20,000 nucleotides of DNA from an uncultured virus (IMG/VR IMGVR_UViG_3300050821_004861) (taxonomy: Duplodnaviria; Heunggongvirae; Uroviricota; Caudoviricetes), in the IMG/VR virus record IMGVR_UViG_3300050821_004861; one strand, 5' to 3'. Shown in pieces: positions 1,680-19,016 of this stretch (the stretch's first letter is position 1; each line of letters starts with the position of its first letter). The notes under the pieces were generated by a model. The model was not told the DNA's origin, ran no database searches, and saw only the letters and a list, made by a program, of their open reading frames with translations. The position numbers and the translations under genes were made by a program.

Positions 1680-1985
1680 TTGGGAATTACTGAAGAGGCT
1701 GGGAAAGTTGGAGTGTCTGCCGTCACAGCTATGGCAAGCACTCCTTTGGCAATTGCCTTGTTAATTGTCAATGTAGGTTTTTTGGGTTTTGCAGGATATG
1801 TTTTGGGCGAAGTTGCAGCCAACGCATCTGAGCGCAACAAAACTCAAATGGATCTAATCGCACAATTAGTTGGCGATATTAGAGATTGTCGGCAAGGACC
1901 AAAACCTACAACTTGGCATAGTCCTAGTAGTGTTGTGGAACAACCTATAGATTATTTACCAAGTCCTTTGGATATGACAAAATGA
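1680..1985 (+). CDS. Membrane protein with TM helix plus short coiled coil (lysis accessory / spanin-like?)
   Basis: TTG start after a GAGGAGGGG RBS; one long TM segment followed by an amphipathic helix; directly after the endolysin. Confidence 0.55.
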   Translation: MGITEEAGKVGVSAVTAMASTPLAIALLIVNVGFLGFAGYVLGEVAANASERNKTQMDLIAQLVGDIRDCRQGPKPTTWHSPSSVVEQPIDYLPSPLDMTK

Positions 1986-2542
1986 ACGAACATTTATCAG
2001 ATTATATAATGATCACAGAACCTCTAATGACAAAGAATGTTTTGGATGAAATTTTATCCGACTTAAATGAAGTTGAGTGGCGCGTCCCAGATGCGATGTA
2101 TGGTTATGATCGTACTTGTACGACATTCCCAGTATCATCAGCTGTTATAGGAAATTATCCAATACCAGCAGGTAAATTAGATAATGTCAAAAAAATTGAC
2201 AATACATTATTGAGGGTAGTACATAAGGCATTACGAATTTATCAAGGAAGGTTTCCTGATATTCATACTCATTCTGATTCTGGTTTTGATATACTACGTT
2301 ATGATATTGGGCAGTATGTTGGTTCTCACATAGATGATCATGCTCCTAGAGTATTATCCATGTCAATCGGTCTTAATGATGACTATACAGGAGGAGAGTT
2401 TAGATTTTGGAGAAATGATGATCATATCATCAAAGTACCGTCTGGCTGTGCCATAATGTTCCCGCCAAACTTCATGTATCCGCATGAAGTTTTACCAATA
2501 AAATCTGGTGTTCGATATTCAATGCTTACTTGGTTTGTATAA
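1982..2542 (+). CDS. 2OG-Fe(II) oxygenase (prolyl-4-hydroxylase-like)
   Basis: HxD (HID), LNDDYTGGEF, distal H (YPHEV) and RYS motif. Confidence 0.9.
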   Translation: MNEHLSDYIMITEPLMTKNVLDEILSDLNEVEWRVPDAMYGYDRTCTTFPVSSAVIGNYPIPAGKLDNVKKIDNTLLRVVHKALRIYQGRFPDIHTHSDSGFDILRYDIGQYVGSHIDDHAPRVLSMSIGLNDDYTGGEFRFWRNDDHIIKVPSGCAIMFPPNFMYPHEVLPIKSGVRYSMLTWFV

Positions 2543-2560: not shown

Positions 2561-2812
2561 ATGAGTGACGAAGATAAACGTACAATTGCGATCGTTACCA
2601 TTATTGCCGTAGTTGGCGTATTTGGTTTATTATATATGTTATTGGGAATAGGGTTTTATGCTGAATATGAATGTGTTCAATTTTATATTATGAAACAAGA
2701 TAAAATACCACCAGTTTGTTCTAGTGGAGATTTTAGTAAAACATTGCTGGAATTTGCAGGTCTTATGATTGGCGTATTAGCAGCCATTAAAGTCTTTATG
2801 GGAAATATGTAG
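2561..2812 (+). CDS. Small two-TM membrane protein
   Basis: GAGG RBS; two hydrophobic segments flanking a loop with two Cys. Confidence 0.65.
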   Translation: MSDEDKRTIAIVTIIAVVGVFGLLYMLLGIGFYAEYECVQFYIMKQDKIPPVCSSGDFSKTLLEFAGLMIGVLAAIKVFMGNM

Positions 2813-2839
2813 AAGGGGGCTTTTGGCCCCCTTCCTTTT
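2812..2839. terminator. Intrinsic terminator between convergent genes
   Basis: Stem gaagggggc / gcccccttc with a ttttg loop, followed by ctttt on +. Confidence 0.85.
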
Positions 2840-2848
2840 AGTGGCGCC

Positions 2849-3583
2849 TCAGAACGCTACGTTGAGACGATCCTTGCGCGAACGCTTGATACCAAAGAAC
2901 GCCATAAGACCGAAGCCGAGTCCAAGCATTGCCCAAGTCGAGGGCTCAGGAATCGCCGCAGTCTCCATGCTCTCGTTGAACCCCGTGATGGAGGCGCCAC
3001 CACGAAGACCAAGAGTAGCCGCTTCCGTCATGCTAAACGCACCATCCGCCGAGAATGGCGAAAGGTTCGTACCAGCGAACGAGAACGGGTTGGTAGTCGG
3101 CGAGCCGCTGTCCTGAAACAGCGTCGTGCCAGGCGTGCTGAGTCCGATTCCAGCCGGTTGGCCGTTGGCAGAATCAGCAAAGAAGCCAAGCGTCGAAGGC
3201 CCTGACCCAAGTGCATCGTTGAAGGTCAATGACGCGCTCTCGCGGATGCCATTAACTGGGCCGACGAAGTTGGTATCGCCAACCACGATTCTCAGCGCAC
3301 CCGTGCTTGGACCGCTGTTCGAGATCAGCGAAGTTGAGAACTGGAGATTGTCCTCACCCGCGCCGCTAACGCTTGCTGCCACAGTACCGATAATGTGGAA
3401 CGCACCGACCGTGGTGTTCAAGATGATGATGTTGTTCGACGGGCCAGCAAGATCGCAGGCCTGACCATCAGCACAAGTAACCACAGTCGAGCCGTCACTG
3501 AAGGCGATTTGCAACGTCGCCTGGGCGGGTTGCGCCCCAAAGAGAGCGGCGGCTGCCACCCCCATAAGCAGATACTTATTCAT
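2849..3583 (-). CDS. PEP-CTERM (PEPxxWA-CTERM) sorting-domain surface protein
   Basis: Sec signal peptide ending AQA; Ser/Thr/Gly-rich body; C-terminal IPEPSTWAM, TM helix and basic KRSRK tail; AAGGAG RBS. Confidence 0.93.
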   Translation of the reverse strand: MNKYLLMGVAAAALFGAQPAQATLQIAFSDGSTVVTCADGQACDLAGPSNNIIILNTTVGAFHIIGTVAASVSGAGEDNLQFSTSLISNSGPSTGALRIVVGDTNFVGPVNGIRESASLTFNDALGSGPSTLGFFADSANGQPAGIGLSTPGTTLFQDSGSPTTNPFSFAGTNLSPFSADGAFSMTEAATLGLRGGASITGFNESMETAAIPEPSTWAMLGLGFGLMAFFGIKRSRKDRLNVAF

Positions 3584-4919: not shown

Positions 4920-4943
4920 AAGGGCGCTCCTAAGAGCGCCCTT
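4920..4943 (-). terminator. Intrinsic terminator downstream of the 4950-5771 gene
   Basis: aagggcgctc-ctaa-gagcgccctt perfect 10-bp stem, followed by TCTCT on -. Confidence 0.85.
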
Positions 4944-11806: not shown

Positions 11807-12094
11807 CTACTCCTTTGGATCGAACACTGCCAAACGCAACGCATACCCTGCCAAATCCAATAAACTATCAAAATCTCCTTTCTTTGAATATCTACTGAGT
11901 TTATCTATTATATAAATTAAGAATTTCATTCTGACTGCTGCCTCAAATGAGTTAACATGTATTCCTTCTGGAAACAGAATCATTAATATTTGAGCAGTTT
12001 TATGTTCATTGCTACCATACTCCTTCTCACGCTCTTTCATAATTTCTATTAATTGATTAGCTAACTCTATGGCACGCTCTGTTTCTGTTGTCAT
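11807..12094 (-). CDS. DUF6378/Nmad1-like small all-alpha protein (MazG-like nucleotide-handling superfamily candidate)
   Basis: ERxxEYG ... KLSR ... DSLLDLAGYA pattern. Confidence 0.6.
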   Translation of the reverse strand: MTTETERAIELANQLIEIMKEREKEYGSNEHKTAQILMILFPEGIHVNSFEAAVRMKFLIYIIDKLSRYSKKGDFDSLLDLAGYALRLAVFDPKE

Positions 12095-12537
12095 GCAAAC
12101 AAATCCTTTGGTCTTATGTTACGGATTTGCAGAGTTGGTATTCCTAATTTATAAAATTCAAGAATTGATTCTTCATTATCGTCAACAATAAAATGTATTT
12201 GATAAAATCTATCCTTAAAATGTTCTTTGATTAATCTAAGTTTCAATTCGCTGTTCTTGGTATAATCCTCGTCTGGGCGCATCAAGATTGTATTTATATC
12301 AATCCTATTTCGTACTAACCAACTAACAGTTAGTGTTCTGAACTTTTCTGGTCTCCCAGTAAATCCTACAATCTCGTAATTCATAGCAGAAAGAGAATTG
12401 ATTAAATTAGCTACGTTCTTAAATGGTTTGTCATATTTTCCGTTTTCGTAGTACTCATCCCAAGGCACAGTACCGATCATGCTGTCTCTCCAAAAGGAGT
12501 CAGCTACAGTATGATCAATATCTATAACTACAATCAT
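12091..12537 (-). CDS. HAD-superfamily phosphatase (PNKP phosphatase-domain-like)
   Basis: IDIDHTVAD (DxD), FTGRPE, MRPDED, IVDD. Confidence 0.85.
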   Translation of the reverse strand: MIVVIDIDHTVADSFWRDSMIGTVPWDEYYENGKYDKPFKNVANLINSLSAMNYEIVGFTGRPEKFRTLTVSWLVRNRIDINTILMRPDEDYTKNSELKLRLIKEHFKDRFYQIHFIVDDNEESILEFYKLGIPTLQIRNIRPKDLFA

Positions 12538-12719
12538 TGATTTATTAGGCCGTCCTCGTCAATCCAACCTGTATCCCAGGCTTGTTCATAAGTGAATTTT
12601 TTCTTGGTATAAGGATTGGTAAATCTACTCTCACCTTTCTGTCGCGCCACCTTTCCTTGCTGATAACACATTGATACATCTAAGGCGATTTCTTCTGCCC
12701 AACTAAGTTTGAGTTCCAT
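12534..12719 (-). CDS. Rmf/CrpP-fold small protein
   Basis: YQQGKVARQKG...NPY......AWDTGW resembles the RMF pattern G..A...G...PY......W..GW. Confidence 0.6.
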   Translation of the reverse strand: MELKLSWAEEIALDVSMCYQQGKVARQKGESRFTNPYTKKKFTYEQAWDTGWIDEDGLINQ

Positions 12720-13459
12720 TATAGTTCATTCGCTCCTATAATATCCAATTTCTTTACTATGTCAGTTTTTTCTTCAGATGTAAGTTTCTTGTTTTCATAG
12801 ATCATGTTCTGTAGATCTATTCTGGCTTTGAATGCATCATTCTTATAAAAAAGATAGAACCAAGGATATACTTTCTCAACCTCTATTACCATAGCATCCA
12901 TTACGTTTCTATACTCATCTTGTACACGTCTGCTGACACGTTTCCTTGTCATATTAACAAAGTTACGCATATTGATAGACATATTGATATTTGTTAGAAT
13001 ATTTGTTGGCAAGACACCTCGCGCATCTTCATTATGCACACCGTTATCTATCATTATTTTATAACTGGCAGCAATAGTTTCCATTGTATTTTTATAAAGT
13101 TCATTCCCTACAACTGATGGACCTGTAGCATATTCAAAATCTTCCATATTCACAATACGCATAGCTTGCTGAGCATATGATGCAGTTCTGGTGCGCACCA
13201 ATTGATGGGTGAACGCTCTTGTAACCTTCTCTATGAGGAATGTAAATTGAACAAATTCCCAACTAGATGGCAATGTGCCTGCTGCCAATTGAAGTTCTTT
13301 TAAAACCTCATAATCCGGTTTCGCTCGTATCTCATCGAGCAATCCTGGAGACATTTTAAGTCTTGTTGATCTAGTGTATGCAATGATATTAGCAGCATAG
13401 CGACCAGGATCTTCAGAACCCATACCTGTTCCGTCGATGAGTGTTACTTGCATATCCAT
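12719..13459 (-). CDS. thyX: Divergent flavin-dependent thymidylate synthase (ThyX-family) protein
   Basis: FTFLIEKVTRAFTHQLVRTRTASYAQQAMR, DARGVLP, NMRNF, RKR...QDEYR. Several canonical motif residues are substituted. Confidence 0.85.
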   Translation of the reverse strand: MDMQVTLIDGTGMGSEDPGRYAANIIAYTRSTRLKMSPGLLDEIRAKPDYEVLKELQLAAGTLPSSWEFVQFTFLIEKVTRAFTHQLVRTRTASYAQQAMRIVNMEDFEYATGPSVVGNELYKNTMETIAASYKIMIDNGVHNEDARGVLPTNILTNINMSINMRNFVNMTRKRVSRRVQDEYRNVMDAMVIEVEKVYPWFYLFYKNDAFKARIDLQNMIYENKKLTSEEKTDIVKKLDIIGANEL

Positions 13460-14325
13460 CCCTCTATCTTGCGAACATCTTGGATTAGATCATCTAGCAG
13501 TAATTTGGGTCGCCATGTTGCGTAGCGCCCCAAAGAATAGATACCATGATGTACTGTTGCCCAACGCATAAACGCTTTACGTTCTGCTTCATCTATCTCT
13601 GTTATTTTGAAGTATGGCTGTCTCTTAAAGTCAGCGTCGAGTACGACACAATCATATAAACCAAGACTATTATAAACAAGAGCCAAATCAATAAAATCAG
13701 GTATTTCAGTACGGTTTGGGAACTCAACAATGAGTTGATCCCCTGTAATAGTGGCGCGACTATATACTTCTGGACCTGGGTATAGAACTGAGACATAGGC
13801 ATCACAATCCAATATTCTACCTGTGAATACACAACCTGGAATACTATCAAAATTAATATCATGTTCATATTCTAACAATGCCATTAAAACTGGCATTGGC
13901 AATGTAGAGATAGCTTTAACTGGTATATCCGCTTTGTTTTTTAATGGATCAAATCCTGTTCCATAGCAGACATTAACATTTTCTGCCATTTGCTCTACTA
14001 AATTTTGTGGCGCTACATATCGTTCTTCTTGAATAGTACCCGCAATAATGGATCTATCTGATAGATATTTGCCAGTGCATTTTCTTGAATAAGAGAGACT
14101 ATCTGCCACTACGTTTCTAAATGGTTCATGAGTCTTTAACATATTAACTTTTTTAAAAGGTATTCCCAAAATATTACCTATTTCTGGAGTTCTAAACCGC
14201 AAGACTGCATGATGGTTATTTGGCAGTTTTTCTTGTTTTTCAAACACGGTTATGTGATGACGTCTTAGCATATTAGCTGCCAAGAGTCCTGACATACCAG
14301 CACCTATAATATGGATATCTGCCAT
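13444..14325 (-). CDS. FAD/NAD(P)-binding oxidoreductase
   Basis: N-terminal IIGAGMSGLLAA...VFEK Rossmann motif. C-terminal SLGRYATW resembles the GR motif of UDP-galactopyranose mutase / amine-oxidase-fold enzymes. Confidence 0.85.
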   Translation of the reverse strand: MADIHIIGAGMSGLLAANMLRRHHITVFEKQEKLPNNHHAVLRFRTPEIGNILGIPFKKVNMLKTHEPFRNVVADSLSYSRKCTGKYLSDRSIIAGTIQEERYVAPQNLVEQMAENVNVCYGTGFDPLKNKADIPVKAISTLPMPVLMALLEYEHDINFDSIPGCVFTGRILDCDAYVSVLYPGPEVYSRATITGDQLIVEFPNRTEIPDFIDLALVYNSLGLYDCVVLDADFKRQPYFKITEIDEAERKAFMRWATVHHGIYSLGRYATWRPKLLLDDLIQDVRKIEGWICK

Positions 14326-14331
14326 ATTTTG

Positions 14332-14886
14332 TTACTTCGGTTTGATAATGGCCTTCTTGAAGAAACGAAATCCCATCTTATCAAAAGGTGGGACAATGTT
14401 CCTTCTCAACTTCTCACGCAGGAACGCTTTGAACGTACTCGTATGGATACTCTCGAACTCATCGAAGTGTACCTGATTTTCTTCCAACAGTTTACGCAAA
14501 GCCATCGCATAAGAGTGTTGACCTCTAGTATAGTCAATCTCAAAATGTCTTTTGATAATTTCTGAGCCGTCGTTTTCTGCTACCCATTGAATAGCATACT
14601 CACGTTTCTCTTCACCCTTAGCTAAACTACCCTGGATAACATCATCTATGCTAATTTTGCCGCCGCCTGTCATTGTAAATTCTTCTGAGCCAGCAGCCAT
14701 CATAGCTCTAGGTAAATCTACTTCCTCAATTTGAGCAAGTTCCCTATTCAATTCTTTTAGGTGCGCCTCAACTTGTTCGATCTCAGCTTGCAACTCTAGG
14801 GCTTTACTTGCCCATTTCGATATGGATGATAATTGCTCTTCTGATGGCGCAACAAATCCGAACATATCACGGACATCGTCAGTCAT
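14332..14886 (-). CDS. Phage replication-region protein with N-terminal coiled coil
   Basis: GGAG RBS; heptad coiled coil; IHTSTFKAFLRE motif of a type seen in phage proteins next to SSB-like genes. Confidence 0.7.
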   Translation of the reverse strand: MTDDVRDMFGFVAPSEEQLSSISKWASKALELQAEIEQVEAHLKELNRELAQIEEVDLPRAMMAAGSEEFTMTGGGKISIDDVIQGSLAKGEEKREYAIQWVAENDGSEIIKRHFEIDYTRGQHSYAMALRKLLEENQVHFDEFESIHTSTFKAFLREKLRRNIVPPFDKMGFRFFKKAIIKPK

Positions 14887-15181
14887 TTTCTTTCTCCAAA
14901 ATTGGGGTAGCTGTAATCACACGTATCTCAGCTTCTTCTTCGGGAGTGATACCAGGCATTTGTTTGATCCAAGAACAAACAGCACAAGTATTTCTAGTAT
15001 CATCTGCCCATGTATATACATGACAATGACATACAGCGCAATCAAATTCTCTATAATCCACAATGTCCTCCTTCCACATTTTCAAATAGGCGCGCTCATG
15101 GAAGCTGCTTCCCACTTCCCAAGAATTAACCCTCGAAGCATAAGGGCCATTCATCCGATTTCTGTAACCGGATCGCGCCAT
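14879..15181 (-). CDS. Cys-rich hypothetical protein (start uncertain)
   Basis: CAVCHCH and CAVC; fills the gap in the operon. Confidence 0.55.
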   Translation of the reverse strand: MARSGYRNRMNGPYASRVNSWEVGSSFHERAYLKMWKEDIVDYREFDCAVCHCHVYTWADDTRNTCAVCSWIKQMPGITPEEEAEIRVITATPILEKEND

Positions 15182-15186
15182 AAATA

Positions 15187-15621
15187 TTAACCCTTGAGCC
15201 TGTCGTCTGTTCCACGTCCCTTTAATATATTGGACTGTAGGAACATGAGATCACAAATAGCACATGCTATGTGTGATAATCCAGTAGCAGGATCAATTAG
15301 TACGCCTTTTTGAAACTCAAAGATGTGGCGCTGCGTTTTGGCAAGAAGCTCAGTATAGGATTTTGGATTTTCAATCCAACCCCAAGCACCGTGCCTTTCT
15401 TTACCATACATAAGCGCACGAGACACTTCTTCAAGTGCGTCGATTGGAATTAATGTATGGTCTATTTTAACAGGTTCTGGCACAAGTTCAGGTTCCGGCG
15501 GTTGTTCAATTACAGGTGCGATAACAGGTCTTGAAAATCTTGTAGGTGGTCTATCCAATCTAAGCATGTTCTCAATTTCTTCTGTCGCTCTATTGACAGC
15601 TAGGCTTTCATTCTCTGTCAT
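15187..15621 (-). CDS. DUF5664-like (dATP/dGTP diphosphohydrolase N-terminal domain) protein
   Basis: KIDHTLIP..ALEEVSRALMYG..RHG.W.W...RH.......D..TGLSHIA.A...LMFL; AGGAG RBS. Confidence 0.8.
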   Translation of the reverse strand: MTENESLAVNRATEEIENMLRLDRPPTRFSRPVIAPVIEQPPEPELVPEPVKIDHTLIPIDALEEVSRALMYGKERHGAWGWIENPKSYTELLAKTQRHIFEFQKGVLIDPATGLSHIACAICDLMFLQSNILKGRGTDDRLKG

Positions 15622-17654: not shown

Positions 17655-17939
17655 CTACCGTCTCTTCATGTGATTTACATTGACTAGTGGTTCGTTATTT
17701 TTGAGACAAATCTCAATTGTGATACCTTCTAATTCTAAAGCTTGTAATAATGATAGATCCTCTTTCACAATATGGACAAGAGGCATTAATCCAGCTTTAT
17801 GTAATTCGTCAATTACTTGATTGAATCCTTTTGAACGATTATTACCATTCAGTGCACGGTTTTTACTTCCGTGACCAACATAAAATATTTTGTTTATATC
17901 AGTTCGTTTCCAAACATAGACGCAATAATTACTTTTCAT
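17655..17939 (-). CDS. Small GIY-YIG family nuclease (94 aa)
   Basis: YCVY...FYVGHG...R ... ALELE ... LVN. Start chosen at MKSNY (17939). Confidence 0.75.
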   Translation of the reverse strand: MKSNYCVYVWKRTDINKIFYVGHGSKNRALNGNNRSKGFNQVIDELHKAGLMPLVHIVKEDLSLLQALELEGITIEICLKNNEPLVNVNHMKRR

Positions 17940-18348
17940 GTGATTTCTTTGTGAGCTTATAAACACCCGGTGCAATCTTCTCAACAAGCTTCTTCTCCAT
18001 CAATCTAGTTACAGCATTATTGATTGTACTTTTATTGTAACCTAATGATACAAGATTATGACTCATTTCTCGCCATTCTGCCGATTGGCGCTTCTGTAAA
18101 AATTCAAGAGTAAAATCCATTGCTGTTTTTCCATCTGGATGTTTAAAATGAGATTGTCTTTGCTTTTTATTATGTGGCGGTGCCATTAACTTTTGGTTAT
18201 GAGCAACAAGTTGCGCCACTTTAGAAAAGTGTTCCTCTTTTGGTTCAGGAAGTTCTTCAACATGAACATTAAGTTCATCTGGCAAAAGTTTTGCCATCAT
18301 AGCAAACATGATCTCTGCGTTACCTGAAAACTCCACTTTGTATTTCAT
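17929..18348 (-). CDS. Hypothetical protein with C-terminal winged-helix domain
   Basis: AGGAG RBS; LGYNKSTINNAVTRLMEKKLVEKIAPGVYKL is a typical wHTH recognition helix plus wing. Confidence 0.7.
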   Translation of the reverse strand: MKYKVEFSGNAEIMFAMMAKLLPDELNVHVEELPEPKEEHFSKVAQLVAHNQKLMAPPHNKKQRQSHFKHPDGKTAMDFTLEFLQKRQSAEWREMSHNLVSLGYNKSTINNAVTRLMEKKLVEKIAPGVYKLTKKSHEK

Positions 18349-18380
18349 TTTTCTTCTCCTATGGGCATTGAATGATAAGA

Positions 18381-18414
18381 GGCGCTGCTACCGGCCCATT
18401 CCGATAGCAGCGCC
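18381..18414 (-). terminator. Strong hairpin, terminator-like
   Basis: Minus strand GGCGCUGCUAUCGG-AAUGGG-CCGGUAGCAGCGCC (14 bp, one U-G) followed by UCUUAU. Confidence 0.7.
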
Positions 18415-18624
18415 AATATGTGATGTTATGCGATTTCACAGGTAATGTCAAAACCCACCGAGAACCTGAATCGCATCTTGTAGTGCCAAAACAACAATGA
18501 CCGCTCACTATGGGGCGCGTGCGACGGCGTTATTGCTACGTCTGACCACGCTGGAACATCATTGTTATCCATCACTAGCCGGTAATCACACATCCGCTGC
18601 TGGGGTTGTATCCTCGGTGGGATT
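18381..18624 (-). ncRNA. Candidate structured non-coding RNA with pseudoknots and a 3' terminator-like hairpin
   Basis: Several long pairings whose G-U wobbles form only on the minus strand (detailed in findings); no credible ORF. Confidence 0.6.
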
Positions 18625-18626
18625 CC

Positions 18627-18971
18627 TCATTTTCTTGCTTTTTTCTTATATTTGCTCATCTGCACAACATGGCGCACAGAAACTAGTTTGTGTATTTTTG
18701 GCTGTTCCATTATTGGATAAACTTTAACTTGTTCTCCATGCGGAACAATACCAAGTTTGTATCCCAATGCTCTTAAAACAGCATTGATAGTAGCTGCTTG
18801 CGGCTTTCTTGTTTTACCAGAAAACCAATTTGATAAAGTATTCGATGTTACGCCACTGTTATCTTCAATCCATTTATAATTTACGCCGCTGTCCTGATAA
18901 ACAGTTCTGATTTCGTCAATTATAGGATCTTTATCAACGAAATTATACGATTTGTAGGTGAAGCTCGCCAT
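18627..18971 (-). CDS. XRE/Cro-like HTH transcriptional regulator
   Basis: IEDNSGVTSNTLSNWFSGKTRKPQAATINAVLRALG; AAGGA RBS. Confidence 0.85.
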   Translation of the reverse strand: MASFTYKSYNFVDKDPIIDEIRTVYQDSGVNYKWIEDNSGVTSNTLSNWFSGKTRKPQAATINAVLRALGYKLGIVPHGEQVKVYPIMEQPKIHKLVSVRHVVQMSKYKKKARK

Positions 18972-18998: not shown

Positions 18999-19016
18999 AA
19001 TTGCGATAACGCAATT
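18999..19016. promoter_or_regulatory. Palindromic operator candidate in the divergent intergenic region
   Basis: AATTGCG-ATAA-CGCAATT perfect 7-bp inverted repeat, 5 bp upstream of the + strand -35 box. Confidence 0.55.

Follow-up and report, generated by a model that had tools for sequence, protein, structure and literature searches.

The DNA analysed here is a 20,000-nt window of an uncultured Caudoviricetes virus (IMG/VR record IMGVR_UViG_3300050821_004861), itself part of a 47.8-kb contig with an estimated completeness of 59%. Near one end of this window, two minus-strand genes, one for an XRE-type helix-turn-helix (HTH) protein and the other for a MarR-like winged helix-turn-helix (wHTH) protein, are separated by a gap of 278 nt, and this gap is occupied by a folded RNA belonging to a class that is real and is new to Rfam and to the literature searched. 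The element, which measures 155–212 nt among its relatives, holds two crossing (pseudoknot) pairings and is followed by a terminator-like hairpin; the XRE stop codon lies 5 nt from its first strand, S1a, and the wHTH gene starts 32 nt past the hairpin (Table 1). An earlier sequence-only reading of the window had drawn at this place two pseudoknot-type pairings, a long hairpin and a terminal 14-bp hairpin, all of which were found to be present, and had proposed that they form a novel noncoding RNA.

Table 1. Features of the RNA and its flanking genes in the 20,000-nt window, in minus-strand order.
Feature	Position	Strand	Remarks
XRE-type HTH gene, upstream of RNA	18627..18971	-	114 aa; Pfam HTH_3 E 2e-4; PHROG transcriptional regulator
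Conserved RNA core, S1a to PK-d 3' strand	18416..18623	-	208 nt; match to covariance model R1 155.2 bits, E 1e-32
S1 5' strand (S1a), CCCACCGAGG	18612..18621	-	pairs with 18454-18463
Hairpin A (GCAGCGG ... CCGGC)	18578..18600	-	11-nt loop contains PK-d 5' strand
PK-d 5' strand, GUGUGAU, in hairpin A loop	18585..18591	-	pairs with 18418-18424; at full extent in the window, 18593-18585 with 18424-18416
Helix B, long hairpin	18482..18576	-	conserved base AGUG/CACU, variable tip
Junction ACAAG, helix B to S2	18477..18481	-	CAAG invariant
S2 5' strand (S2a), AUGCGAUUCAGGU	18464..18476	-	pairs with 18428-18443
S1 3' strand (S1b), UCUCGGUGGG	18454..18463	-	immediately adjoins S2a
S2 3' strand (S2b), ACCUG-UGA-AAUCGCAU	18428..18443	-	constant 3-nt bulge containing invariant GAA
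PK-d 3' strand, AUCACAU	18418..18424	-	covariation with 5' strand
Terminator-like hairpin, then tail UCUUAUCAUU	18381..18414	-	14 bp, 10 of them G-C
wHTH (MarR-like) gene, downstream of RNA	17929..18348	-	139 aa; heads long replication operon

Homologues of the element amount to 18 distinct sequences from contigs of uncultured, soil-type phages, together with one copy that carries a 37-nt deletion, and they occur in three unrelated gene neighbourhoods. Type I (9 distinct sequences) has the order XRE, RNA, hairpin and then wHTH or a small open reading frame (ORF), whilst in type II/III (7 distinct sequences) a small gene is followed by the RNA, a 277–291-aa protein of no known family, XRE and wHTH. 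Type IV (2 distinct sequences) lies around 36 kb from XRE, where a 168-aa HTH protein, a 48-nt spacer, the RNA, a hairpin and a 103-aa signal-peptide protein succeed one another.

S1, the long hairpin and the terminal hairpin all appear in the minimum free energy fold of the minus strand, which is more stable than expected from shuffled sequences (z −2.85, equalled by 1 of 200 shuffles), with the fold of the plus strand being weaker (z −2.06, 3 of 200 shuffles). In a MAFFT alignment of 11 sequences, 94.8% of the cells in the proposed helices are paired, compared with 83.0% in shuffles, none of 500 of which reach the observed value, and with 34–42% when the partners are slid. The covariance-model alignment of all 18 sequences gives 96.1% paired cells against 77.4% in shuffles and 31–39% for slid partners. 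As the latter alignment favours the helices that were modelled, of which S1 is not one, the MAFFT result is the independent one.

The support is spread over most of the helices. In the MAFFT alignment, both sides have changed in 4 of the 10 pairs of S1 and in 6 of the 7 pairs of the second pseudoknot, PK-d, and compensatory changes are seen in 2 of 4 pairs at the base of helix B, 6 of 9 in its inner part, 6 of 8 in upper S2 and 1 of 5 in lower S2. With the covariance-model alignment this rises to 7 of 7 pairs for PK-d (99.2% of cells paired) and 7 of 8 for the 8-bp upper S2 (100% paired). S1 forms 9–10 bp by duplex folding in 17 of the 18 sequences, and the eighteenth, clipped by the alignment window, has 10 bp by eye; in type IV its sequence is wholly different (CUUGCUCGGG/CCCGAGCAAG). 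S2 has the same 3-nt bulge in all 12 sequences tested, in which PK-d is 6–9 bp long, and the tip of helix B is free to vary, its length and sequence differing between relatives. The comparative support is unusually good, with covariation in all of the crossing helices.

G-U pairs account for 52 of 563 cells in the 18 sequences, and since these would be A-C mismatches on the other strand, the RNA lies on the minus strand, as the sequence-only reading had argued from G-U wobbles. Two smaller parts of that reading fared less well. The small AGCGG/CCGGCU hairpin, hairpin A, can be drawn with 5–6 bp, but its pairs never vary (0 of 5 in the MAFFT alignment, and 5 of 5 invariant in the 18 sequences), and without covariation the helix is compatible with the data rather than proven. 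A meaning of the repeated CCCCA...AGCGG is not supported, its second copy lying in the variable tip of helix B and being absent from most relatives. A further candidate, a kissing contact between a hairpin loop AAUGGG and the CCCC linker, was rejected, as the loop is lost in L010, L006 and L029, which keep CCCC, and CCCC is absent in types II–IV. The invariant positions are the unpaired CAAG, the GAA of the S2 bulge and the stems of hairpin A, in RNAs whose G+C content spans 0.48–0.63 across these phages. A complex covarying fold with invariant junctions is the pattern of an aptamer, a ribozyme or the core of a ribonucleoprotein (RNP), and not that of a base-pairing small RNA.

It is extremely improbable that there is no RNA element at all and that the pairings reflect chance complementarity, a signal at the DNA level (operators or an origin) or an extension of XRE by stop-codon read-through. 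Such readings could draw on the frame after the XRE TGA, which is open for 67 codons in the window (18426-18629, minus strand) and runs to an invariant UAA, and on the promoter-like TTGACA-17-TAACAT inside the element. The open frame is, however, a property of the window that is broken in relatives: all three frames are interrupted by at least one stop codon in 12 of 12 cores tested, which led to the rejection of read-through coding, and the indels are not multiples of three. The compensatory changes and the 52 G-U cells are, moreover, strand-specific. The promoter-like sequence (sigma-70-like, 10 of 12 matches, 18423-18451, minus strand) covers the S1b–S2b linker and the S2b strand; its −35-like hexamer is not conserved in relatives, so that it is probably a chance occurrence, and an internal promoter was dropped.

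No known family accounts for the element, in agreement with the sequence-only reading, which could match it to none. Rfam 15 (4227 models, among them those for riboswitches, ribozymes, RNase P, tmRNA, group I/II introns and phage RNAs) gave no match in the whole window at the gathering threshold, and when E values up to 10 were admitted for positions 18250-18750, only five chance-level matches were obtained, none of them over the core and the best with 16.8 bits against a threshold of 55. Five homologous loci gave three Rfam matches, none at the RNA, and ARAGORN predicted no tRNA or tmRNA gene in the window. Group I introns, the core of which is built on a P3–P7 pseudoknot, share the crossing topology, in that the strand order S1a ... 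S2a-S1b ... S2b, with two strands abutting, is that of P3/P7, and free-standing homing endonuclease genes are found nearby in some of the phages. In other respects the RNA differs from them: it has no P4–P6 domain and no P8 hairpin (the S1b–S2b linker is 10–14 nt long and free of a hairpin in 16 of 18 copies), it is followed by its own ribosome-binding site, and it has no match to the Rfam intron models. Nor is any gene interrupted, as the two flanking genes are complete and abut in relatives without the element. Membership of the group I introns was therefore rejected, with the crossing topology alone being shared.

A full-text search of the literature found no description of this RNA. A catalogue of around 8,500 candidate structured RNAs (PMC10690425), so far as its accessible part goes, is comparable in its IMG/VR intergenic source and in its use of covariation evidence, but its candidates, at 29–151 nt, are shorter than the present core. 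Four motif words of the RNA are absent from the readable supplementary tables of that catalogue, which do not include the alignments, so a fragment such as the hairpin may be listed there.

The fold itself raises the possibility of a new class of self-cleaving ribozyme, which would cut the polycistronic transcript between the upstream and downstream genes and uncouple their stabilities. HDV, twister and glmS ribozymes have pseudoknotted cores in the style of the doubly pseudoknotted core and invariant junction nucleotides seen here, and many phage ribozymes lie, as this RNA does, between genes on the sense strand inside operons. This explanation would also suit an optional distribution, but it is nonetheless an improbable one. 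At 155–212 nt the RNA is larger than known small self-cleavers and resembles no Rfam ribozyme family even at E up to 10, self-cleavage would not account for the hairpin or U tract that constantly follows it, and its narrow distribution with a single copy per genome is unlike the scattered spread of known classes.

With the XRE protein as the query, 80 related IMG/VR loci were retrieved. Of 46 distinct flanks tested by nhmmer with the gap from the window, 12 had the element downstream of XRE, in 10 different sequences, and a profile search added compact, diverged copies from two more phages, in which the element lies upstream of XRE by around 900 nt. The rest of the set was found by the covariance model R1 and by gapped patterns built from conserved positions. 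The first wide pattern in IMG/VR gave 49 loci, of which 40 were given to the model (9 on known contigs were dropped) and 6 were real, and the second and third gave, respectively, 19 loci with 4 new ones, all chance, and 15 loci with 7 new ones, none real. Nearly all matches of a 14-mer scan with TTGGCACTACAAGA were chance. In a metagenome collection, 8 of 16 matches of a gapped pattern were real, all in the same phage group. A listing of sequencing runs contained no carrier of the RNA. Among prokaryotes, sampled as one genome per species, a gapped pattern gave 9 matches, all chance occurrences in G+C-rich coding DNA; this pattern was built from types I–III and is blind to type IV-like copies, so that absence from prophages is not established. 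GenBank phages gave no blastn match to the region, and tblastn with XRE gave only 17 distant matches there, with <60% identity, in Caulobacter and Rhizobium/Sinorhizobium phages.

The element occurs once per genome in each of six element-bearing contigs, which ruled out a second, put-like copy, and no copy was found in two complete relatives and one partial relative. Where the RNA is missing, the XRE stop is separated from the wHTH start by 1–20 nt or overlaps it, without a hairpin. A block of around 270 nt, comprising the RNA, the hairpin and a new ribosome-binding site, is therefore an optional cassette, and the core and the stop signal are gained or lost together. On the XRE tree, which is weakly resolved, the presence of the RNA is patchy. 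One copy (L018:2008-2224, on a contig shared with L088, L189, L210 and L228) has lost 37 nt that make up S2a, S1b and part of S2b, with the hairpin and flanks intact, and is probably decaying.

XRE and wHTH are themselves a conserved pair, with stop and start overlapping (for example, as ATGA) or almost in contact in relatives that lack the RNA (window 17929-18971; loci L007, L008, L019, L020, L031, L042 and L047), which suggests translational coupling of two small DNA-binding proteins heading the replication operon. The sequence-only reading had offered the downstream wHTH or GIY-YIG protein as a possible partner of the RNA. Neither proposal is supported, since wHTH is also present in RNA-free relatives, where it abuts XRE, and the RNA stands beside unrelated genes in two further contexts, with the GIY-YIG gene being restricted to the lineage of the window. 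No neighbouring protein common to all contexts was found: the 277-aa family, for which no Pfam or PHROG family was found, is missing from all of the type I/IV contigs searched (5 of 5).

Of the 18 copies, 17 have a termination-like signal behind the core. In types I and IV this is a strong hairpin with a pyrimidine/U tail, located 2–5 nt after the PK-d strand in 11 of 11 copies and with an energy of −24 to −36 kcal/mol in the 8 flanks that were folded whole. The type I hairpins have unrelated sequences in which the pairing is kept (9 of 14 pairs are compensatory among 10 type I sequences), and those of type IV, unrelated to them in sequence, are equivalent in place. The hairpin in the window is the strongest terminator-like site of the 20 kb, with a U tail as short as those of the other operon-end hairpins there. 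In 6 of 7 type II/III copies the hairpin is absent, and a T-rich tract comes directly after the G+C-rich PK-d strand. Three of these tracts were measured, at 8, 8 and 11 T of 16, which places them in the top 0.8%, 0.4% and 0.06% of windows in their loci; those of the remaining type II/III copies were assessed by eye.

On the other side of the core, S1a begins between 7 nt after and 14 nt before the end of the upstream stop codon in 16 of 18 copies, with the upstream ORF extending 14 nt into the RNA in L006, L029 and L039; in type IV, S1a lies 48 nt behind the upstream gene. From this layout the RNA is judged to be co-transcribed with the gene before it. The next gene starts 20–73 nt after the core in 14 of 18 copies, namely those with a correctly called start, and this distance is too short for a typical promoter, so the next gene is probably transcribed by read-through of the module.

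The 48-nt spacer of type IV (L256:1455-1502) contains an inverted repeat TTCTGT...ACAGAA around TATTATAC, which could serve a separate transcript as its promoter or operator. In types II and III (L214:2657-2710; 3' flanks of L301, L299 and L277), the linker after S1a (...CUCU...) resembles the tract after PK-d (...UUCUCUUACCC), and either of them could pair with an AGAG-type sequence immediately preceding the start codon (over 7 bp in L214), with a small hairpin UUACCC/GGGUAA between the two look-alikes. These complementary stretches may form a translational layer of control.

Taken together, a co-transcribed module, little promoter room behind it and a stop signal at its 3' edge lead to the simplest reading, namely that the folded RNA governs read-through. 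The element may thus be a cis-acting gate on transcription, riboswitch- or attenuator-like or similar to put and EAR, and we favour this reading tentatively, with a confidence slightly short of even. Among the functions listed by the sequence-only reading, the attenuator leader fits the anatomy best. The module is a self-contained, portable RNA, transcribed within a phage operon and folding into a compact core in which S1 abuts lower S2 in the style of an H-type pseudoknot, PK-d connects the hairpin A loop with the 3' tail, and helix B points outward. This core would act in cis on the transcribing polymerase and determine if it stops at the 3'-edge signal or continues downstream. In types I and IV the stop signal would be the strong hairpin with its pyrimidine/U tail, and in types II and III the G+C-rich PK-d helix and the U-rich tract, with the pseudoknot itself serving as the terminator stem; standing in that place, it would make termination dependent on the tertiary fold. 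The fold may promote or prevent termination, and it may respond to a small ligand, to a factor of the host or phage, or to RNA polymerase itself. That the signals terminate, and that the RNA modulates them, we infer from sequence.

The gate is supported by the constancy of the core while the part that follows it varies between a hairpin and PK-d with a U tract, a constant sensor with a variable output being the layout of riboswitch-type elements. The genes that the module precedes are unrelated: wHTH with a replication operon of around 14 kb, the 277–291-aa protein and the 103-aa signal-peptide protein. Several observations weigh against the gate. A search for an antiterminator pairing of the hairpin arms with the core found none that is conserved, the best partners differing between sequences, and with the low U content of the hairpin tails (e.g., UCUUAUCAUU) efficient termination is not assured. 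The type II copy L286 has an A-rich tract after PK-d instead of a U-rich one. The lack of a common function among the downstream genes speaks against a usual metabolite riboswitch, and the element is dispensable for basic operon control, since close relatives manage without it. Promoters were, furthermore, scored only against the sigma-70 consensus.

Transcriptional riboswitches such as ZTP, preQ1-I and fluoride have a pseudoknotted aptamer that abuts the terminator. The present RNA is similar in having a structured, conserved core and a 3' pseudoknot strand that adjoins the expression platform, and in lying directly upstream of a gene. In all 18 sequences the core is constant and the platform varies, being a hairpin in 11 copies and a U tract or no hairpin in 7. 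Mutually exclusive terminator and antiterminator folds were not found, as the best duplexes between hairpin arm and core are placed differently in each sequence. The RNA also differs from these riboswitches in that its downstream genes have no shared function, it comes from one group of uncultured phages only, and it lies mostly behind a coding gene and not at the 5' end.

The setting also recalls phage HK022, which carries putL and putR and in which the gene order is cro-putR-tR1; here a Cro-like gene, the RNA, a terminator and a long early operon follow one another, and a position in the early operon ahead of a terminator fits. HK022 put, Bacillus subtilis EAR and Escherichia coli RARE are described, in the accessible part of PMC8632103, as cis-acting RNAs that alter termination inside operons, with complex structures in EAR and RARE, and put being around 65 nt with two hairpins and no pseudoknot. 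They provide a precedent for complex cis RNAs that change termination in phage and bacterial operons, and by analogy the present RNA, likewise structured and inside an operon, is proposed to act on polymerase at terminators. It differs from all three in having no sequence or model match to them, and from HK022 in having one copy per genome. At 155–212 nt and with two pseudoknots, it does not belong to the put type as the accessible part of that source describes it.

A bolder form of the gate reading is that this is a new class of regulatory RNA in which, in types II and III, a long-range pseudoknot and not a local hairpin forms the intrinsic terminator stem, the core being a new riboswitch aptamer or a direct binder of RNA polymerase, and the whole being moved between operons by phages as a cassette. 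This is possible but inclines to the doubtful, and the evidence for a pseudoknot terminator would equally allow the new class of self-cleaving ribozyme.

A serious rival to the gate is a trans-acting RNA that owes its 3' end to the same signal. Under this explanation, which we regard as unlikely but not remote, a stable accessory RNA (an RNA "moron") would be cut or terminated out of the operon transcript and act as a protein-binding RNA, for instance as a decoy or sponge that captures a host factor or a defence protein, or as the RNA component of an RNP, the hairpin or U tract merely marking its 3' end. An optional, single-copy element that is patchy on the XRE tree and found in three unrelated neighbourhoods behaves as accessory cargo would, and the loss of S2a and S1b by the 37-nt deletion in one lineage is what might be expected if that cargo is dispensable. 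The compact fold with invariant junctions would suit a protein or ligand partner, the 3' end is terminator-like, and the 48-nt upstream spacer of type IV could house a promoter of its own. Elsewhere, however, such a promoter would have no room, as 16 of 18 copies leave none between the upstream stop and S1a and in three the upstream ORF enters S1a, and with the next gene within 20–73 nt, the same signal must still be read through. A trans-acting RNA would, in addition, have no constant protein partner next to it, given that no neighbour is common to all contexts and the 277-aa family is missing from the type I/IV contigs searched, and it shows no conserved unpaired "seed" for base pairing.

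The element could, finally, be a passive structural insulator without any sensing, which would shield the message from exonucleases or Rho or uncouple the translation of the two genes. This seems very improbable, as a simple hairpin would suffice for such a purpose, leaving the invariant junctions and two covarying pseudoknots across distant phages unexplained. In its favour are the position of S1a at the stop codon, the replacement of a tight stop/start overlap by a structured spacer with its own Shine-Dalgarno sequence, and the fact that folds of the 3' flank can bring the pyrimidine tail CUCUU into pairing with the ribosome-binding site AGGAG. Visual inspection of L039 and L029 in the alignment showed no covariation in a pairing between S2b and the ribosome-binding site, which was rejected.

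Complex, doubly pseudoknotted RNAs with invariant junctions are rare, and those that have been studied are mostly riboswitches, ribozymes or RNP cores. Here, strong covariation was obtained from only 18 sequences, and the compact form of around 155 nt is suited to structure work. The gate reading has a clear, testable output in the read-through of the 3'-edge signal. If the pseudoknot and U tract do terminate transcription, this would be an unusual terminator design, and should the RNA prove to bind a ligand or polymerase, the few classes known to do so would gain a new one. The element is also an example of a putative regulatory RNA that moves between phage operons in the manner of a cassette.

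The minus-strand run opened by wHTH consists of replication and nucleotide-metabolism genes, encoding DNA ligase, Pam3 gp34- and gp33-like proteins, a dATP/dGTP diphosphohydrolase domain and ThyX and, further on, a PNKP-type phosphatase, a DnaQ-like exonuclease, a DNA polymerase III alpha homologue and a SNF2 helicase. A nucleotide-metabolism cluster (window 12091-15621, minus strand, and 1982-2542, plus strand), made up of the dATP/dGTP diphosphohydrolase domain, an FAD/NAD-binding protein, ThyX, the PNKP-type phosphatase and a 2OG-Fe(II) oxygenase, may be a pointer to modified DNA bases. A scan of the contig's 25 further ORFs against Pfam found no reverse transcriptase or integrase. Free-standing genes resembling homing endonucleases occur in the same operon at different positions in different phages, with no link to the RNA: a GIY-YIG-like gene in the window (17655-17987, minus strand), recognised by eye and with no Pfam match, and HNH/AP2-like proteins in two relatives (L039:4014-4364 and L010:4592-5020).

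Two more strong G+C-rich hairpins, each with a short T tail, mark boundaries between gene clusters in the window (2812-2834 and 4920-4943, plus strand) and provided a local standard for the appearance of terminators in this phage. Around 30 nt upstream of the XRE start, in a short divergent region towards the primase-polymerase side, there is a perfect inverted repeat TTGCG-TTAT-CGCAA (19001-19014), which is a candidate operator. An ORF at 2849-3583 (minus strand) ends in a PEP-CTERM sorting motif (Pfam E 3e-6), which hints at a host with an exosortase system.

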